A stretch of 64,000 bases of DNA from a bacterium. GTDB lineage: Bacteria > Electryoneota > Electryoneia > Electryoneales > Electryoneaceae. Positions 5,396 through 47,082 of this stretch are shown here, piece after piece (positions within the stretch are counted from its first letter, which is position 1; every line of letters begins with the position of its first letter). The notes below the pieces were generated by a model that was not told where the DNA came from, ran no database searches, and saw only the letters and a program-made list of their open reading frames with translations. The DNA is taken from positions 2,099 through 66,098 of the forward strand of contig JAHLLB010000017.1 of assembly GCA_020444425.1 (NCBI GenBank), read 5' to 3'. The position numbers and the translations under genes are program-made.

Positions 5396-5403
5396 CGAAG
5401 TTT

Positions 5404-5462
5404 CTCAAGTCTCAAGTCTCAAGTCTCAGGTCTGATCACTGAGTACTGATCACTGAGTACTG
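5404..5462. repeat. short tandem repeats: heptamer CTCAAGT x3 (+CTCAGGT) followed by 14-mer TGATCACTGAGTAC x2
   Basis: Read directly from sequence 5404-5460. Confidence 0.8.
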
Positions 5463-8457: not shown

Positions 8458-9045
8458 TCATTGCTCAAGGGGCACGAGGAAGCAGTCGGTGAATCCCCGG
8501 CCCTGGATGACCTGTTTCGCGAACTCGGCGGCGTCGCGTGATTCGAACGGTCCCAGCTGCACCCGGTACAAGCCATCGCCCGGCACGATGGTGACATCGT
8601 AACCCGTTTTATCCCGCGCTCGTTCGGCAGCGCGATCGGCATCCTCGGGATTGCTGAGGCTGAAGACCTGGATAGCGTACGGTTGCGGCGTGACGACGGG
8701 TGGCTCCGGAACGCCACTGATCCGATCCGGACCCAATTCGACGATAAAGGCATCGGGGAATCCGCTCCCCTGCAGTTCATTCATATACGGCTGAACCTCG
8801 TCCCGGGTTTCCCCGTCCCCGGCCCAGACACGGTAGAGACCGTCCCGCCAGTGGATCCCGACCGGTTCGAAGCCGGATCGTTCCAGCTGCGTTTCGGTTT
8901 GCAGAGCGAGGGATTCGTCGCTGACAGCGGCAACCTGAACGTGGAACAGGCCGGCAACCGCGGGTGCCGAGAGTACGCACAGCGCTGCGAGGCCGGCGGA
9001 TACGGCGGGTATGAGCTTACTTTTCCGGATAGAGCTGGATCGCAT
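8458..9045 (-). CDS. SPOR domain-containing protein (two SPOR repeats) with signal peptide
   Basis: Start MRSSSIRKSKLIPAVSAGLAALCVLSAPAVAG at 9045; two repeats resembling SPOR (YRVWAGDGETRDEV..., YRVQLGPFESRDAAEFAKQ); the upstream part of ORF 8458..9327 overlaps the repeat array and is judged non-coding. Confidence 0.7.
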   Translation of the reverse strand: MRSSSIRKSKLIPAVSAGLAALCVLSAPAVAGLFHVQVAAVSDESLALQTETQLERSGFEPVGIHWRDGLYRVWAGDGETRDEVQPYMNELQGSGFPDAFIVELGPDRISGVPEPPVVTPQPYAIQVFSLSNPEDADRAAERARDKTGYDVTIVPGDGLYRVQLGPFESRDAAEFAKQVIQGRGFTDCFLVPLEQ

Positions 9046-9227
9046 CAGCGGGAATCCTGTCTCAGGATCGTGAAGCCTGAAATATGGAGGACAGGAGTCG
9101 ATCAGGCAAACGTGTGGTGTGAATAATGTGGCAATCTCGCGCTCGTGGGCATGGTTTCGCTCTCCCGGCTCACCGTATATTCCGCATCCCGACATCGTAT
9201 ATGGAATTTGACCTGGAATTGTTATCA

Positions 9228-9580
9228 TGCCCTCGGGCTTTAGCCCGGGATTATCGGTAGCTGAAGTACAATCGAAATCACGTCCTCGGGCTTCAGCCCG
9301 GGTATTTAACACGGTCCAATAACACAAGGTGTAACCCCGGACTGAAGTCCGAGGGCATGCATGCGGTGGTCGGTTAGGAGTTTGCGAATCCCGGACTAAA
9401 GTCCGAGGGCATGCATGCGGTGGTCGGTTAGGAGTTTGCGAATCCCGGACTGAAGTCCGAGGGCATGCGTGCGGTGGTCGGTTAGGAGTTTGCGAATCCC
9501 GGACTGAAGTCCGAGGGCATGTGTACGGTGAAAGGTTGTGAGTTGGAGAATCCTGGACTGAAGTCCGAGGGCAAGTTTCG
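9228..9580. repeat. REP/BIME-like array: 2 inverted + 5 direct copies of a CCCGGRCTGAAGYCCGAGGGCAT hairpin; the direct copies form a ~53-bp tandem repeat (~4.3 units)
   Basis: Copies at ~9228-9250 and 9282-9304 (reverse orientation, G-C stem variant) and ~9336, 9389, 9442, 9495, 9552 (A-T stem variant); identical inter-hairpin units ATGCATGCGGTGGTCGGTTAGGAGTTTGCGAAT; hairpin stem CGGAC/GTCCG with loop TGAA. Confidence 0.75.
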
Positions 9581-9628
9581 AATGGCTCAATTCTTATCCA
9601 TGTTCCTCAAGAGGCAGGGGAGGCGGAG

Positions 9629-10747
9629 ATGATCATCGGCATTCCGCGTGAGCGGTTTATCGACGAAACACGTGTCGCGGTATCACCGGCGGCAGCTCGT
9701 TCGCTGGTCGAGGCCGGGTCAACGGTGTACATCGAAACGAACGCCGGGGAAGCGGCGGGTTGGCGTGATTCTGAGTATGAAAACGCCGGCGCGACGATTG
9801 TCTACAGCGAGGAGGAAGCGCTCGGCCGTGCGGATCTGGTGATCAAGGTGTTGCGTCCCAACCCGCAGGAAGCGGAGATGATCCGTGAAGGCGCGGCGCT
9901 GGTCAGCTACCTGCAGCTTTCGCAAGCCCCGCGCGAGGTGTTCATCTCGTTGTATGAACGTGAGATCACCGCGATCGCGCTGGAGAATATCTGGTATGAG
10001 GGCGGCGGCCATCCGGTACGTCGTGCGATGAGTGAAATCGCCGGCCAGCTGGCGGTGCATGCGGGGTCGGAACACCTGCGCGCCGACCGTGGTGGACGTG
10101 GCATTCTGCTCGGCGGGTTGCCGGGTGTGCCTAGCGCCAGTGTCGGGATTCTGGGCGCCGGAGTGGTTGGGCAGGCGGCAGCTGCTGCGGCGTTGAACCG
10201 TGGCGCACACGTCATCCTCGTTGACCAGAAGATCGCGCCGTTGCGTGAAGCGATGAAGATTTACGGTAACCGGCTGCAAACCGGGATCGTCAACGAGCAC
10301 AACATAGAGAAACTGTGCAGTTTCGTCGATGTGCTGATCGGTGCGATCCTGATTGAGGATCATCCGACGCCGCACATTCTGATGCGTGACCAGGTCCGCG
10401 CGATGAAACGTGGCAGCGTGCTGGTGGATGTGGCGATTGATCAGGGCGGAACGGCGGAGACCAGCCGTCCGACGTCTATCTCGGACCCCACGTATATAGA
10501 GGAAGAGGTGGTGCATTATTGCGTGCCGAACATGCCGGCGCTGGTGCCACGCACCGCGACGCGTGCGTTCCAGAACCAGGTGTTGCCGTTCGTTCGAGAG
10601 ATCATGAAGTCCGGAGTGAAGGAAACGTTGCGTTCGCATCCGTATTTGCGGACCGGATTGACGTTGTATGAAGGGAAAGTTGTCCGTGACTTGATCGCGA
10701 AGACTTTCGGTGTTGAGTCTCATGCGATCGATGAGGTGTTGGGATGA
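9629..10747 (+). CDS. ald: alanine dehydrogenase family protein (AlaDH/PNT)
   Basis: 372 aa; N-terminus MIIGIPRERFIDETRVAVSPAAA matches the Ald family N-terminus (MIIGVPKE...NRVA...); NAD-binding GILGAGVVGQAAAAAA. Confidence 0.7.
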   Translation: MIIGIPRERFIDETRVAVSPAAARSLVEAGSTVYIETNAGEAAGWRDSEYENAGATIVYSEEEALGRADLVIKVLRPNPQEAEMIREGAALVSYLQLSQAPREVFISLYEREITAIALENIWYEGGGHPVRRAMSEIAGQLAVHAGSEHLRADRGGRGILLGGLPGVPSASVGILGAGVVGQAAAAAALNRGAHVILVDQKIAPLREAMKIYGNRLQTGIVNEHNIEKLCSFVDVLIGAILIEDHPTPHILMRDQVRAMKRGSVLVDVAIDQGGTAETSRPTSISDPTYIEEEVVHYCVPNMPALVPRTATRAFQNQVLPFVREIMKSGVKETLRSHPYLRTGLTLYEGKVVRDLIAKTFGVESHAIDEVLG

Positions 10748-12793: not shown

Positions 12794-12900
12794 CAACTGG
12801 GATGTGGGATGTGAGATTCGAGCGAAACGAGCTGGTGGGTAGCTGGTCGTGTGTTGAAGCTGGTCAATGTTCGTAACTCGTAGCTCACAACTGGTTTTCA

Positions 12901-12973
<73 letters not shown>

Positions 12974-13037
12974 CAGTTAGCGATCCAGATGAGAGAGCAG
13001 AAATAGTCAGAGCACCAAGACCGCCGGAGGACGCAGG

Positions 13038-14228
13038 ATGGCGAAGGAAGTATTTGAGCGGACGAAGCCCCACGTAAATGTGGGAACGATTGGTCACGTG
13101 GACCATGGCAAGACGACGTTGACGGCCGCGATGACGTTGGTGTTGTCGAAGGCGGGCGGAGCGGAATTCCGTTCGTTCGATTCGATTGACAACGCGCCGG
13201 AAGAGCGTGAGCGTGGTATCACGATCGCGACGGCCCACGTCGAATATGAGTCGGAGAACCGTCACTACGCGCACGTTGACTGTCCAGGTCACGCGGACTA
13301 CGTGAAGAACATGATCACGGGTGCTGCGCAGATGGACGGTGCGATTGTGGTTGTGAGTGCGGCTGACGGTCCGATGCCGCAGACTCGTGAGCACATTCTT
13401 TTGGCTCGTCAGGTGAACGTGCCGGCGTTGGTGGTTTACATGAACAAGGTCGACCTGGTCGATGACGAAGAGTTGTTGGACCTGGTAGAGCTTGAGATGC
13501 GCGAGTTGCTTTCGGAATACGAATTTCCGGGCGACGACATTCCGATCATCCGTGGTTCAGCGCTTGAGGCGTTGAACAATCCGGATGATGAGAAGGCGAC
13601 GACGTCGATCTTTGAATTGATCAAGGCTGTCGACGATTTCATTCCGGAGCCTGAGCGTGCGACGGACCTTCCGTTCCTGATGCCTGTCGAGGATGTGTTC
13701 TCGATTACGGGTCGTGGTACGGTGGCGACGGGTCGTATTGAGCGTGGCATCGTGAAGACCGGTGAAGAGCTTGAGTTGGTCGGTCTTGGTGCAGCCCGCA
13801 AGACGGTTGTGACGGGTGTCGAGATGTTCCGCAAGATCCTGAATGAGGGTCAGGCGGGTGACAACGCGGGTCTGTTGCTTCGTGGTGTTGACAAGGATGA
13901 GATCGAGCGCGGGATGGTTTTGGCGAAGCCGGGTTCGATTACGCCTCACACGAAGTTCGAGGCCGAGGTTTACATCCTGAGCAAGAACGAAGGTGGCCGT
14001 CACACTCCGTTCTTCGATGGGTATCGTCCTCAGTTCTACTTCCGGACGACGGATGTGACTGGCGCGATCAAGTTGCCTGAGGGCGTCGAGATGGTGATGC
14101 CTGGTGACAACATCAAGATGGATGTGGAGCTGATCGCACCGATCGCGATGGAAGAGACGCTTCGTTTCGCGATTCGTGAGGGTGGCCGTACCGTCGGTGC
14201 CGGTGTTGTCGCGAAGATTATTGAGTAG
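13038..14228 (+). CDS. tuf: elongation factor Tu (copy 1, tufB-like position after the tRNA cluster)
   Basis: 396 aa; [18 protein letters not shown] GTPase motifs; protein identical to the second copy at 29951..31141. Confidence 0.97.
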
Positions 14229-14553: not shown

Positions 14554-14627
14554 CAAGCGCAAAGTGTTTTGAGGTTTGAGGTTGGGTTGCTCAGGACTCA
14601 CAACTCACAGCTCATACCTGCAGTTAG

Positions 14628-18092: not shown

Positions 18093-21881
<3,789 letters not shown>

Positions 21882-22008
21882 GGGAACTTTGCTCTTACCA
21901 CGGGCTCATGTCCGTGGTAAGACAGTCCTTTCTGTGCATGGCAGAGAGGCTGACCGAAGCAAATCGAAGGTTCCTGTCAGTACCCTCCCCTTATCCAAGG
22001 AGGCAAAG

Positions 22009-29920: not shown

Positions 29921-29950
29921 TCCACCAACGCAACCTCTGGAGACAGATCG

Positions 29951-31141
29951 ATGGCGAAGGAAGTATTTGAGCGGACGAAGCCCCACGTAAATGTGGGAAC
30001 GATTGGTCACGTGGACCATGGCAAGACGACGTTGACGGCCGCGATGACGTTGGTGTTGTCGAAGGCGGGCGGAGCGGAATTCCGTTCGTTCGATTCGATT
30101 GACAACGCGCCGGAAGAGCGTGAGCGTGGTATCACGATCGCGACGGCCCACGTCGAATATGAGTCGGAGAACCGTCACTACGCGCACGTTGACTGTCCAG
30201 GTCACGCGGACTACGTGAAGAACATGATCACGGGTGCTGCGCAGATGGACGGTGCGATTGTGGTTGTGAGTGCGGCTGACGGTCCGATGCCGCAGACTCG
30301 TGAGCACATTCTTTTGGCTCGTCAGGTGAACGTGCCGGCGTTGGTGGTTTACATGAACAAGGTCGACCTGGTCGATGACGAAGAGTTGTTGGACCTGGTA
30401 GAGCTTGAGATGCGCGAGTTGCTTTCGGAATACGAATTTCCGGGCGACGACATTCCGATCATCCGTGGTTCAGCGCTTGAGGCGTTGAACAATCCGGATG
30501 ATGAGAAGGCGACGACGTCGATCTTTGAATTGATCAAGGCTGTCGACGATTTCATTCCGGAGCCTGAGCGTGCGACGGACCTTCCGTTCCTGATGCCTGT
30601 CGAGGATGTGTTCTCGATTACGGGTCGTGGTACGGTGGCGACGGGTCGTATTGAGCGTGGCATCGTGAAGACCGGTGAAGAGCTTGAGTTGGTCGGTCTT
30701 GGTGCAGCCCGCAAGACGGTTGTGACGGGTGTCGAGATGTTCCGCAAGATCCTGAATGAGGGTCAGGCGGGTGACAACGCGGGTCTGTTGCTTCGTGGTG
30801 TTGACAAGGATGAGATCGAGCGCGGGATGGTTTTGGCGAAGCCGGGTTCGATTACGCCTCACACGAAGTTCGAGGCCGAGGTTTACATCCTGAGCAAGAA
30901 CGAAGGTGGCCGTCACACTCCGTTCTTCGATGGGTATCGTCCTCAGTTCTACTTCCGGACGACGGATGTGACTGGCGCGATCAAGTTGCCTGAGGGCGTC
31001 GAGATGGTGATGCCTGGTGACAACATCAAGATGGATGTGGAGCTGATCGCACCGATCGCGATGGAAGAGACGCTTCGTTTCGCGATTCGTGAGGGTGGCC
31101 GTACCGTCGGCGCCGGTGTTGTTGCGAAGATTATTGAGTAG
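29951..31141 (+). CDS. tuf: elongation factor Tu (copy 2, str-operon position)
   Basis: 396 aa, protein identical to copy 1; nucleotide differences seen only in the last ~30 nt (GGT/GGC, GTC/GTT synonymous); flanking sequence diverges immediately outside the CDS. Confidence 0.97.
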
Positions 31142-44094: not shown

Positions 44095-44102
44095 TGAGCT
44101 GG

Positions 44103-44250
44103 TCCTGAGTCTTGAGTCCTGAGTCTTGAGAAAAAGACGAAAGACGCAGGACGAGCGACATAAGACGGCATAAACAAGCTTGACATACGGTCTTGGGATT
44201 GGTCTGGAGTGGTTTACTCAGGACTGAAGACTCGAGACGCAAGACTGAGG
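44103..44250. repeat. short repeats: 14-mer TCCTGAGTCTTGAG x2, AAGACG-rich run and inverted ACTCAGGACTGAAGACTCGAG segment in the infA-rpmJ spacer
   Basis: Read directly; shares CTGAGT/CTTGAG core words with the repeats at 5404..5462. Confidence 0.7.
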
Positions 44251-45184: not shown

Positions 45185-45814
45185 ATGGCTCGATATACAG
45201 GCGCGAAGTGCAAGCGCTGCCGGGCTGTCGGCTACAAACTGCACCTCAAGGGCGAACGTTGCCAGGGGCCGAAATGCCCGTTGGAACGCAAGCCTTATCC
45301 GCCGGGACAGCATGGACAATCCCGCCGCCGGAAGAAGTCTGAGTACGGTTTGCAGTTGATGGAAAAGCAGAAGGTCCGTTGGACCTACGACATGCTCGAG
45401 AAGCAGTTCCGGAATTCGTATGAAAAGGCGAACCGGATGACCGGTGTAACCGGTGAAAATCTGCTTGCGATGCTGGAACGTCGTCTGGACATGGTTGTTT
45501 ACCGGACCGGGTTCATGCCGAGCCTGCCGTCCGCACGGCAGCTCGTCCGCCATCGTCACATCCTGGTGAACGGTAAGGTGACGGATATTCCGTCCTACAT
45601 CGCGAAGCCGGGCGACATCATCGAGGTGCGTGAACGCGCACGCAAGATGGAAGCGATTCACTCCAGCCTGCGTCGTGTCAAGACCACGAATGTGATGCCG
45701 CATTTGGAACTTGACAAGGCGAAGCTGCGTGTGACGCTGACCGCAATGCCGACTCGTGAGGACGTCCCGGAGACGTTCAACGAGCAGGCAGTCGTCGAGT
45801 TGTACTCGAAGTAA
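45185..45814 (+). CDS. rpsD: 30S ribosomal protein S4
   Basis: Start MARYTGAKCKRCRAVGYKLHLKGERC at 45185, internal to ORF 45038..45814. Confidence 0.96.
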   Translation: MARYTGAKCKRCRAVGYKLHLKGERCQGPKCPLERKPYPPGQHGQSRRRKKSEYGLQLMEKQKVRWTYDMLEKQFRNSYEKANRMTGVTGENLLAMLERRLDMVVYRTGFMPSLPSARQLVRHRHILVNGKVTDIPSYIAKPGDIIEVRERARKMEAIHSSLRRVKTTNVMPHLELDKAKLRVTLTAMPTREDVPETFNEQAVVELYSK

Positions 45815-45833
45815 TTGCTGGGAGCGGAACCCC

Positions 45834-46871
45834 ATGAGCACCCTCAATTTCCAGATGCCGGAAATCATCGAGCTGGACGAAGGAACGTATTGCGCAACGT
45901 ATGGCAAGTTCTTCGTCCACCCGCTGGAACGCGGTTTCGGTGTGACCATCGGCAACAGTTTGCGCCGTGTGCTGCTCGCGTCGCTTCAGGGCGCGGCGAT
46001 CAGCTCGGTGCGCATAGAGGCCGACCCGCCGGTACTGCATGAGTTTACGACCATCCCCGGTGTGATCGAGGATGTGGCGGAACTGGTGCTGAATTTGAAG
46101 GAAGTCCGGATCAAGCTGCTGAACAAGCGGCCGAACAAGGTCTTTCTCAGCTTCAAGGGCGACGGTACGTTTACCGCCGGCGACCTGCAGAAGAACAATA
46201 CCGATTTTGAAGTGCTCAACCCTGAGCACCATATCGCCACGCTGACCGAGAACGCGAACTTCAGCATCGAATTGACGATCAAGCGCGGTCGCGGATACTT
46301 CAGCGCGGAAGAAAATCGTGAAGCGAACATGGCGATCGGCACAATTCCGATCGACAGCATTTTCAGCCCGGTGCGCAATGTGACGTTCGCGGTGGAAAAC
46401 ACCCGCGTCGGCCAACGCACGGACTACGAAAAGCTGATCCTCGAGATCTGGACGGACGGGTCCATTACTCCGGACGACGCTCTGTCGCAGGCGGCGAAGA
46501 TCATGCGCGATCACATCCAGCTGTTCATCAACCTTGACCAGTCGGCCGAGGAAGAGGAACCGCAGGAAATCGACGAGGAAGTGCTTCGCATCCGCAAGAT
46601 CCTGAAGCAGCCGGTGGACGCGCTCGAGTTAAGCGTGCGCAGCGCCAACTGTCTGAAGGAAGCGTCGATCAAGACGGTGGCGGATCTGGTCAAGCACACC
46701 GAAGATGAGCTGCTCAACTTCAAGAACTTCGGCCGCAAGTCGTTTATCGAGTTGCAGGAGCGTCTTGAGGGCAAGGGCCTCGAATTCGGCATGGACGTCG
46801 AGAAGTTCCTCTCCGAAGGGGATGGCATGACCAGTTCGGCTGGTGTGCCGGTTTCGGAAGAGGCTGAGTAG
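45834..46871 (+). CDS. rpoA: DNA-directed RNA polymerase subunit alpha
   Basis: Start MSTLNFQMPEIIELDEG at 45834; N-terminal dimerisation domain and C-terminal alpha-CTD. Confidence 0.97.
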   Translation: MSTLNFQMPEIIELDEGTYCATYGKFFVHPLERGFGVTIGNSLRRVLLASLQGAAISSVRIEADPPVLHEFTTIPGVIEDVAELVLNLKEVRIKLLNKRPNKVFLSFKGDGTFTAGDLQKNNTDFEVLNPEHHIATLTENANFSIELTIKRGRGYFSAEENREANMAIGTIPIDSIFSPVRNVTFAVENTRVGQRTDYEKLILEIWTDGSITPDDALSQAAKIMRDHIQLFINLDQSAEEEEPQEIDEEVLRIRKILKQPVDALELSVRSANCLKEASIKTVADLVKHTEDELLNFKNFGRKSFIELQERLEGKGLEFGMDVEKFLSEGDGMTSSAGVPVSEEAE

Positions 46872-47082
46872 TAGTTTCTATTACCATGGACTTAAGTCCG
46901 TGGTAAGCGAAGTGGCCGTGTCAGAGGATTTGCAGACGCGGTTGAGCCCAGATATGAATGTCTGGGGCATGAACGAGCCCGGACAGTGAATCGGGGCATG
47001 TAAACAGGTTGGACAAGGCGGAGCCGCGCCATGAGTCGCGCGATCCGCGGACAGTGCCTGTTGGCACCATCGGGAGTTGACC

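Follow-up and report, generated by a model that had tools for sequence, protein, structure and literature searches.

A probable cluster of REP-type elements between a SPOR gene and ald in a bacterium of the Electryoneaceae

What kind of element separates a SPOR-domain gene from ald, the gene for alanine dehydrogenase, in a bacterium of the family Electryoneaceae? The locus lies in a stretch of 64,000 nucleotides (contig JAHLLB010000017.1 of assembly GCA_020444425.1; hereafter the window, to whose positions coordinates refer unless another locus is named), and the spacer between the two genes holds seven regularly spaced copies of a short hairpin. We consider it probable that this array is a cluster of repetitive extragenic palindrome (REP)-type elements with local tandem amplification.

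Pattern matching in the window found seven exact occurrences of CCYGGRCTNAAGYCCGAGG, the minus-strand copies starting at 9231 and 9284 and the plus-strand copies at 9336, 9390, 9444, 9498 and 9552, where dinucleotide shuffles give an expectation of 0.01. This agrees with a preliminary description, made from the sequence alone, of seven hairpins, two inverted and five direct, between the SPOR gene and ald. With up to two mismatches the window contains eight matches, the eighth being a related hairpin at 46885. All seven array copies are intergenic, between the start of the SPOR gene (about 9045) and the ATG of ald (9629). Their orientations follow the series - - + + + + +, with start-to-start distances of 53, 52, 54, 54, 54 and 54 nt, and the conserved module is wider than the 19-mer: AAT-CCCGGRC-T(G/A)AA-GYCCGAGG-GCATG. 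The first module (9227..9253, minus strand; pattern match at 9231-9249) reads AATCCCGGGCTAAAGCCCGAGGGCATG on its own strand, has a G-C type stem and a TAAA loop, and folds as DNA with -6.1 kcal/mol. The second (9284..9302, minus strand), recognized by pattern match and fold, reads CCCGGGCTGAAGCCCGAGG, with a G-C type stem, a TGAA loop and the degenerate tail ACGTG. The remaining five hairpins, of the A-T type, form a head-to-tail tandem array on the plus strand (9336..9573), delimited by TRF, a repeat search and a listing of the units. The tandem repeat had been described as about 4.3 units of 53 bp; the tandem arrangement stands, but TRF gives a period of 54 and 4.4 copies for 9336-9573, with 92% matches. 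After each tandem hairpin come GGGCATG, or GGGCAAG in the case of the last, and a 35-nt linker. Units 1-3 are 96-100% alike, with single-base differences and at least one single-nucleotide polymorphism (SNP) private to each; unit 4 deviates in its linker, which matches theirs at about 71% identity, and the array ends with a truncated unit 5.

As single-stranded DNA, each array copy folds into a stem of 5+2 bp that has a bulged A and is capped by a T(G/A)AA tetraloop; the fold energies are -6 to -7 kcal/mol. Both minus-strand copies (2/2) carry GGGC...GCCC and all plus-strand copies (5/5) GGAC...GTCC, which is the compensated pair, G-C in the inverted and A-T in the direct copies, that the preliminary description had pointed out. 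Stem pairs were also read by hand from a MAFFT alignment of 21 family copies, taken from the window, from the related metagenome-assembled genome (MAG) CAXXKJ01 and from locus L036; the 3' half of the CCCAGACA variant is out of register in this alignment. Stem pair 6 alternates between A-T and G-C, and stem pair 4 between G-C and A-T; the only other stem changes are two, both to a G.T wobble, and pairing is disrupted in none of the copies. The same tendency is seen in a wider scan, described below, where the R/Y pair is Watson-Crick in 99 of the 117 listed pattern matches at 107 loci (A-T 55, G-C 44, A.C 12, G.T 6); if the two sides varied independently, about 59 of the 117 would be expected by our own arithmetic from these counts. 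The compensated pairs, with wobbles as the only exceptions, and the stem-loop obtained on folding the unit bear out the earlier proposal of selection on secondary structure: the stem is structurally constrained. In the 35-nt linker, folding shows no structure beyond chance (z -0.18). The array region as a whole folds far better than its shuffles (z -5.8), and the inverted pair formed by module 2 (minus) and module 3 (plus) across a 33-nt spacer (9284..9354), which resembles a REPIN (an inverted REP doublet that replicates as a unit), could form a 71-nt hairpin with a DNA fold of -18.5 kcal/mol (z -5.0; 0/200 shuffles as stable).

The edges of the array are also found outside the assembly in which it was noticed. 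Two Logan short-read contigs, L108 and L109, encode the identical Ald and SPOR proteins and both end inside the array, L108 starting at window position 9489 and L109 ending at about 9253; their overlaps match the window sequence. Both array edges are thus independently confirmed, and the internal copy number is known from the window assembly alone. That short-read assemblies break inside the array is as expected for a repeat, and the SNPs that set units 1-3 apart, one or more in each, speak against a collapse or expansion artefact.

Comparison with relatives indicates that the array is young. Ald homologues at 80-81% identity (P0002, P0003) occur in the same SPOR/ald synteny at loci L110-L114, and the closest named relative by Ald is a 'Calditrichaeota bacterium' MAG (P0004, 78%). 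The spacer between SPOR and ald measures 221-231 bp in L110-L114 versus 583 bp in the window, the surplus of about 353 bp being the array. We found no family copy in L110-L112 (21, 16 and 16 kb) with strict and looser patterns, nor in L113-L114 with the strict pattern, and conserved promoter-like and ribosome-binding site (RBS) blocks bracket the insertion point. Because the spacers in the four relatives' loci examined are short and without hairpins, these sequences identify the array as a recent, lineage-specific insertion and not as a conserved regulator. The earlier suggestion of a recently expanded repeat fares well too, the array being absent from the orthologous loci examined and three of its units nearly identical. 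Other repeats occur upstream of orthologous ald genes at L115-L118. L115 (1-520; GCA_018263585.1, a Calditrichaeota MAG) carries two copies of repeats gtcattctgaac...gaagggaaggtcc resembling miniature inverted-repeat transposable elements (MITEs) upstream of ald, and L116-L118 are three Logan assemblies that all end 276 nt upstream of ald. Judged from these sequences, small repeats seem to have settled repeatedly in the spacer upstream of ald in this clade.

The hairpin family is not confined to this spacer. At a second locus in the window, three modules follow the stop codon (46871) of an open reading frame (ORF) at 45756-46871, all on the plus strand: the related palindrome TTACCATGGACTTAAGTCCGTGGTAA (46881-46906), a two-mismatch match of CCYGGRCTNAAGYCCGAGG whose DNA fold reaches -8.4 kcal/mol (z -6.2); the family member CCCAGATATGAATGTCTGGGGCATG (46947-46971), which keeps the frame CCC...TGAA...GGGGCATG and in which stem pair 4 has changed from G-C to A-T, compensated; and beside it, by sequence reading, the degenerate module CCCGGACAGTGAATCGGGGCATG (46978-47000). 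The CCCAGATATGAATGTCTGGGGCATG-type variant is also present at the CAXXKJ01 loci L006 and L058. The subfamily of the window (AAT...GGGC[AG]T) occurs at no fewer than four loci of the 4.5-Mb contig CAXXKJ010000002.1 (0.54, 1.10, 2.00 and 4.30 Mb), and CAZKGR01 has one further locus (L036). By our reading all of these copies are 3' intergenic and have the sense orientation of the gene upstream. With the strict pattern, direct doublets 53-54 nt apart are found at 1.10, 2.00 and 4.30 Mb and in L036; the locus at 0.54 Mb has a single strict copy about 55 nt downstream of a CCCAGACA-type hairpin. The linkers in the CAXXKJ01 and L036 doublets are 34-35 nt long and poorly conserved in sequence, and because they are equal in length yet so dissimilar, the period of about 54 nt is a property of the family and not merely of a local duplication.

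Scanning 185,579 species genomes for the 19-mer yielded at least 107 loci with 117 pattern matches. By our own estimate chance alone would produce about 100 single matches; nevertheless, most of the matches prove real, because of the genomes with several loci (at least 12, from several phyla, with two to four separate loci each), because the base preceding the motif is C in 72 of the 117 listed matches, and because of the excess of Watson-Crick R/Y pairs. The hairpin was seen in Bacteroidota, Verrucomicrobiota, Planctomycetota, Bacillota, Actinomycetota and a Calditrichota-like lineage. Plasmid and phage collections, searched by BLAST, contained no match to the array, and the motif strings appear in no searchable paper, the literature returning unrelated primers only.

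Some copies of the hairpin sit within larger repeats. In Bacillota MAGs (L004, L016, L007, L020, L033 and L084) it stands at the start of a conserved repeat no shorter than 70 nt, gtgacgactcCCCGGACTRAAGTCCGAGGcttctcggttcatctagcctgctactgccggactatcccc, located at contig ends and beside housekeeping genes; this looks like a dispersed MITE-like element, and no mobilizing enzyme was found in the DNA retrieved. The CAXXKJ01 doublets are part of a conserved composite element about 300 nt long (L058 1497-1815 versus L017 1720-1990, minus strand) that has several further hairpins (gcccgcg...cgcggac, ctgat...atcag, ccgcgg...cgcggg) and is bracketed in L058 by direct copies of GACCCCAGACATGAATGTCTGGGGCATGTTGG; possibly the whole is a mosaic mobile unit of greater size, or else a structured RNA. 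The doublets are also adjoined by arrays of the heptamers GGACCCA/GGACTCA (about 17 times) and GAGTTGT/GAGTGAT. Heptanucleotide tandem arrays occur in the window as well (5403-5462, 12798-12817, 14568-14614, 44102-44154 and 44216-44246), besides those at L058 1835-1960 and L017 about 1990-2040; the heptamers are TCTCAAG, CTGATCA/CTGAGTA, TTTGAGG, ACTCACA, GTCCTGA/GTCTTGA and ACTCAAG, and such arrays recall the short tandemly repeated repetitive (STRR) sequences of cyanobacteria. The palindrome at 46881-46906 belongs, with a copy at 21894-21921, to a two-copy hairpin family of the window, (C)TTACCAYGGRC-NNNN-GTCCGTGGTAAG, with a compensated pair. The copy at 21894-21921 directly follows the stop codon of a 1262-aa ORF (18093-21881, rpoB-like by size and synteny), and CCATGGACACATGTCCGTGGCATTTTT, similar to the GTCCGTGGTAAG-type hairpin, follows a stop codon in L103. 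These GTCCGTGGTAAG-type hairpins may be terminators or another REP class.

If the hairpins are mobile, which enzyme might move them? When the ORFs within 2.5 kb of the 107 listed loci were clustered, one protein family recurred across phyla, in a cluster that spans 9 loci. Six of these (L015, L018, L055, L076, L092 and L098) were confirmed by tblastn with Y1 transposase queries. The proteins from L015, L055 and L076, three of the ORFs scanned against Pfam, match PF01797 (Y1_Tnp) with E values of 2.5e-18 to 5e-27; the cluster ORFs of L013 and L046 had no Pfam match. NCBIfam scores of the Y1 proteins fall near the IS200 cut-off and far below the model for the proteobacterial REP-associated tyrosine transposases (RAYTs); the exception is L092 (Mycobacterium contigs), where the 19-mer adjoins a bona fide IS200-type tnpA (NF033573, 134.6 bits). 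Inverted copies bracket the Y1 gene in L015 (1047(-)/1627(+)) and L076 (2415(-)/2941(+)); the gene in L055 lies between hairpins at 2832(+) and 3384(-), which form 29-nt terminal inverted repeats; and in L018 inverted hairpin doublets stand on either side. A gene flanked by inverted REPs is the REPtron layout of RAYTs, as PMC2817692 and PMC6006769 present it. Under a strict descriptor, GC-rich TRAA-tetraloop hairpins flank Y1 genes in 7/8 loci, and the eighth, L055, has near-exact 19-mers on both sides. A profile search found 4,156 homologues of the Y1 proteins, and loci on long contigs that were picked by the protein alone (L123 from Ferruginibacter, L124 and L125) gave the same picture: all five perfect GC-rich TRAA-loop hairpins in 3 x 20 kb (5/5) lie within about 600 nt of the Y1 gene, which in L123 they flank in inverted orientation.

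The hairpin-associated Y1 ORFs, when trimmed, encode about 123-143 aa and come mostly from Bacteroidota. Their alignment has invariant H52, H54, W92, Y112, Q116, H119 and H120, and the resulting motifs (H-u-H, W and Y---Q--HH, as YIxxQxxHH) agree with the signature of TnpA_Y1 subclass 1.2. Quentin et al. (2018, PMC6006769) characterize this subclass as low-copy, about 148 aa long, found in Cyanobacteria and Bacteroidetes, 'REP: no' and generally without terminal hairpins. Low copy number, fixed context and the Y---Q--HH, HuH and W motifs are shared with the proteins described here; the Y1 genes here, in contrast to that listing, are flanked by hairpins. P0215 keeps one and the same context at 6 listed places, all of them from different samples, which fits a domesticated single-copy gene. 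It is possible, although we would not put it higher than that, that the hairpin is the cognate REP of TnpA_Y1 subclass 1.2 and defines an untagged REP superfamily, present across phyla and spread as direct doublets or tandem units, the window array being a product of this unrecognized RAYT-like system. Such a superfamily may be marked by a GC-rich stem of 7-8 bp, by a C.A mismatch or bulged A, by a conserved T(G/A)AA tetraloop and by a fixed spacing of about 53-54 nt, its members not spreading as inverted REPINs.

The preliminary description had also suggested elements of the REP type or of the bacterial interspersed mosaic element (BIME) type. The REP half of this suggestion is supported by the extragenic position, the compensated stems, the second locus, the dispersal in the related MAG and the 19-mers that flank Y1 genes elsewhere; the BIME half does not fit the head-to-tail copies. 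As a REP-type cluster, the array probably arose as follows. The hairpins would be single-stranded DNA modules of the kind recognized by HuH/Y1 transposases (IS200-family, RAYT-like), presumably mobilized by a Y1 enzyme encoded elsewhere in the genome. A small group of modules, probably direct doublets spaced 53-54 nt apart as in the related MAG, would have been inserted into the ald leader in this lineage only, between the conserved ald promoter-like block and the RBS. One 54-bp unit of hairpin plus linker would then have been triplicated, likely by slipped-strand mispairing or unequal recombination between the 19-26-nt repeats, and less likely by transposase-mediated reinsertion. Under this scenario the array would have no dedicated host function and would be selfish or neutral, with possible side effects on the stability or translation of ald mRNA.

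Several observations weigh against the assignment to REP-type elements. The search for a RAYT (IS200/IS605-like) gene that the preliminary description had proposed came out negative: tblastn with three hairpin-associated Y1 proteins found no Y1 gene either in the 64-kb window or in the related MAG's 8-kb loci. The family is apparently low-copy, with two loci in 64 kb of the window and at least four in 4.5 Mb of CAXXKJ01. Classical REPs number more than 100 per genome. Two scans of JGI metagenomes for the window subfamily returned 0 and 4 isolated matches, about the chance level by our own estimate, and the hairpin family seems to be rare as well as low-copy. The array modules are flanked by AAT (5') and GGGCATG (3') and carry no GT[AG]G or CGTC tag, and the five head-to-tail copies are unlike BIME and REPIN layouts. 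Nor does simple selfish spread account for a spacing of 53-54 nt that is conserved despite poor linker conservation; another constraint could be at work. Finally, the 3' intergenic copies in CAXXKJ01 are, in our own reading, sense to the upstream gene in 5/5 cases, which suits a role at the RNA level too. This orientation fits such a role and the lagging-strand-template bias of Y1 elements alike. Within the window, GC skew is positive throughout, which suggests that the plus strand is the lagging-strand template, and 6/8 clear family copies read CCC...GGGCATG on that strand; the bias fits Y1 biology, and a sense-strand RNA bias would fit equally well.

How far do known systems cover these features? 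With REP elements, as far as the descriptions in PMC3733652 and PMC2817692 extend, the array shares the short GC-rich extragenic stem-loop, the mispaired or bulged base and the Y1 genes flanked by inverted copies, and its hairpin has the size of a REP (an imperfect palindrome of 20-40 nt forming a stem-loop). It differs in the missing GT[AG]G/CGTC tag, the low apparent copy number, the T(G/A)AA tetraloop and the host, a Calditrichota-like bacterium of the Fibrobacteres-Chlorobi-Bacteroidetes (FCB) group and not a proteobacterium. Untagged REP-like families are acknowledged, however (Di Nocera et al. 2013, PMC3733652), and because tandem reiteration of REPs with flanking DNA and head-to-tail dimers are known from the same source, the array belongs to a known kind of element. 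Successive REPs alternate in orientation in BIMEs, at least in the layout set out by Nunvar et al. (2010, PMC2817692). The array shares with BIME-2 of E. coli the regular spacing, the short linkers, the local amplification of units and a lineage-variable copy number, but has five successive direct copies, and only the 9284/9336 junction is inverted. That junction, 9284(-)/9336(+), is an inverted doublet able to form a long hairpin like a REPIN (Bertels and Rainey 2011, PMC3116915), and such inverted doublets flank the Y1 gene of L018. The other neighbours in the array and all CAXXKJ01 doublets are direct, however, the window pair has one arm of the G-C type and one of the A-T type, and the hairpin-associated Y1 proteins fall in a subclass other than the known REPIN-linked RAYT groups. 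A further likeness is to the subterminal hairpins of IS200/IS605 elements and of their non-autonomous derivatives, MITEs of the palindrome-associated transposable element (PATE) type, which have imperfect one-strand hairpins at both ends, recognized as single-stranded DNA by the Y1 transposase. The direct doublets of CAXXKJ01, with distinct first and second hairpins, resemble a minimal element with left and right ends (LE...RE), but the window hairpins have no adjacent transposase gene and a doublet is only about 75 nt long.

The genes on either side determine which host functions are conceivable for the array. The SPOR gene (PF05036), transcribed from the minus strand, has its start at about 9045 (MRSSSIRK...), the minus-strand ORF 8458-9327 being a mechanical extension of it; ald (AlaDh_PNT domains) is on the plus strand, divergent from SPOR. 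Alignment of the spacers, with the array removed, leaves four conserved blocks: caatatgg, caggcaaa, GGTTTC-N17-TATATTCCGC and the RBS GGAGG. The promoter-like block GGTTTC-N17-TATATTCCGC (9153-9185, with TTTC from 9155; plus strand) is conserved in the spacers of L110 and L111 and more weakly in L116. Promoters of the FCB type have a -33/-7 consensus. By analogy, this block would be the ald promoter, and the array, which lies between the conserved TATATT block and the ald RBS, would then be transcribed within an ald 5' untranslated region of about 430 nt. On the SPOR strand, the promoter-like block TTTG-N21-ATATTT (9080..9110, minus strand), of which caatatgg and caggcaaa are kept in L110 and L111, would be the SPOR promoter, placing the array upstream of and outside the SPOR transcript. 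The rest of the ald leader (9574..9631, plus strand) contains the RBS, which is free of the last hairpin, and the ATG at 9629. A promoter and terminator scan found no sigma-70-type promoter-like site, and its three terminator-like matches are within shuffle expectation and unconvincing. Among the roles that the preliminary description allowed for such arrays (mRNA stabilizer, transcription terminator, gyrase/IHF binding site), that of a terminator makes little sense here, because SPOR and ald are divergent; effects on mRNA stability or protein binding may occur as side effects. A further minus-strand ORF within the array (9396-9590; 64 aa, TTG start) has 18-aa repeats, HALGLQSGIRKLLTDHRT, and is carried by the array because 54 is a multiple of 3. 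We rejected it as a gene, since it is repeat-derived and interrupted by the TAAA loop variant of unit 2.

Given this position, the array might be a functional cis-acting RNA leader of ald, its hairpins tuning mRNA stability or translation or binding a regulatory protein. The location downstream of the ald promoter-like block, the five copies that are sense to ald, the sense orientation that we read in all CAXXKJ01 copies, the compensated stems with G.U-compatible wobbles and the stability of the folded region (z -5.8) are all what such a leader would show. However, the orthologous ald leaders examined, at 80-81% Ald identity, lack the array, and the module is also found beside transposase genes and in 3' intergenic positions that have nothing to do with ald. 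Moreover, the last hairpin leaves the RBS accessible, two of the copies would be antisense in the transcript, and the linker is unstructured. Rfam gave only chance miRNA and snoRNA matches far below threshold, both for the whole window at gathering thresholds and for 9000-9800 at E<=10, and on 20 cross-phylum loci nothing overlapping the hairpins. The lineage-specific distribution and the lack of an Rfam match exclude a conserved regulatory RNA, and we consider a leader function of any kind unlikely. The Rfam search also detected, in a Cupriavidus MAG (L025 6317-6545), a HEARO RNA (IscB omega-RNA, 111.5 bits) about 320 nt from a hairpin copy; the neighbouring ORFs are housekeeping genes, and the proximity is therefore probably coincidental.

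Less likely still is that the copies are double-stranded DNA sites for a dimeric protein, phased every 54 bp (about 5 turns) and bound by a regulator of ald or SPOR, by a nucleoid protein or by gyrase as in E. coli BIMEs. The core is indeed a 6+6 palindrome, CGGACT-GA-AGTCCG, the array lies within a divergent promoter region, and a spacing of 52-54 bp is kept despite differing linkers in the window, CAXXKJ01 and L036. However, the compensated changes keep pairing and not sequence, which is unexpected for an operator; the array is missing in relatives that retain both promoters; and the motif is present in many phyla, in non-promoter contexts and flanking Y1 genes. An independent small RNA (sRNA) gene, either a protein sponge like CsrB/RsmZ or a type III antitoxin like ToxI, appears very improbable. 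Five to seven near-identical tandem hairpins with a conserved tetraloop would suit it, and the 54-nt period is within the range of ToxI-like repeats; against this stand the absence of a sigma-70-type promoter-like site and of a convincing terminator among the predictions, the absence of a toxin-like ORF (what follows the array is ald, where a ToxI-like array would directly precede a toxN/abiE-like endoribonuclease gene), the position of GGA in the stem of the hairpin and not in its loop, the lack of conservation at the locus and the lack of an Rfam match. A degenerate CRISPR-like array or an assembly artefact is equally hard to credit. The short palindromic repeats are regularly spaced and short-read contigs break at the array, but three 'spacers' are identical (the ground on which the preliminary description had correctly excluded CRISPR), two repeats are inverted and the repeat core is only 19-26 nt, whereas CRISPR arrays have direct repeats of 23-48 nt with unique spacers, usually together with cas genes and a leader. 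No cas-like genes were seen among the window ORFs or the Pfam-annotated genes of L109-L114, although no search was aimed at cas genes. An artefact is at odds with the independent assemblies, which reproduce both edges, and with the private SNPs of each unit. Group II intron domains, hammerhead cores, ANTAR elements, CsrA-type loops and attC sites were considered and dropped; their cores do not fit, and the Y1 association explains the conservation across phyla.

Apart from the hairpins, the window contains a 300-nt direct repeat, 97% identical, at 13020-13319 and 29933-30232, in which two 396-aa ORFs (13038-14228 and 29951-31141) have their 5' ends. Since the syntenic 396-aa gene in L112 has EF-Tu domains, the two ORFs are probably duplicated tuf genes whose similarity is maintained by gene conversion.

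For the locus itself the importance of the array is small: as a selfish or neutral cluster, it has made the ald leader about four-fold longer and breaks short-read assemblies. As a REP-type cluster it is nothing unusual in kind, although its lineage has been little studied; it departs from the familiar clusters in lacking GTAG, in its direct copies, in its pitch of about 54 nt, in its TRAA loop and in the atypical Y1 subclass. Its value is comparative. The same 19-nt hairpin, with compensated stems, is dispersed in at least 12 genomes of several phyla, and it flanks small Y1 proteins that the reference classification calls REP-less. If this association is true, it would extend the REP/RAYT paradigm beyond the GTAG-tagged proteobacterial and cyanobacterial families and would provide a simple, testable substrate for an uncharacterized subclass of HuH enzymes.

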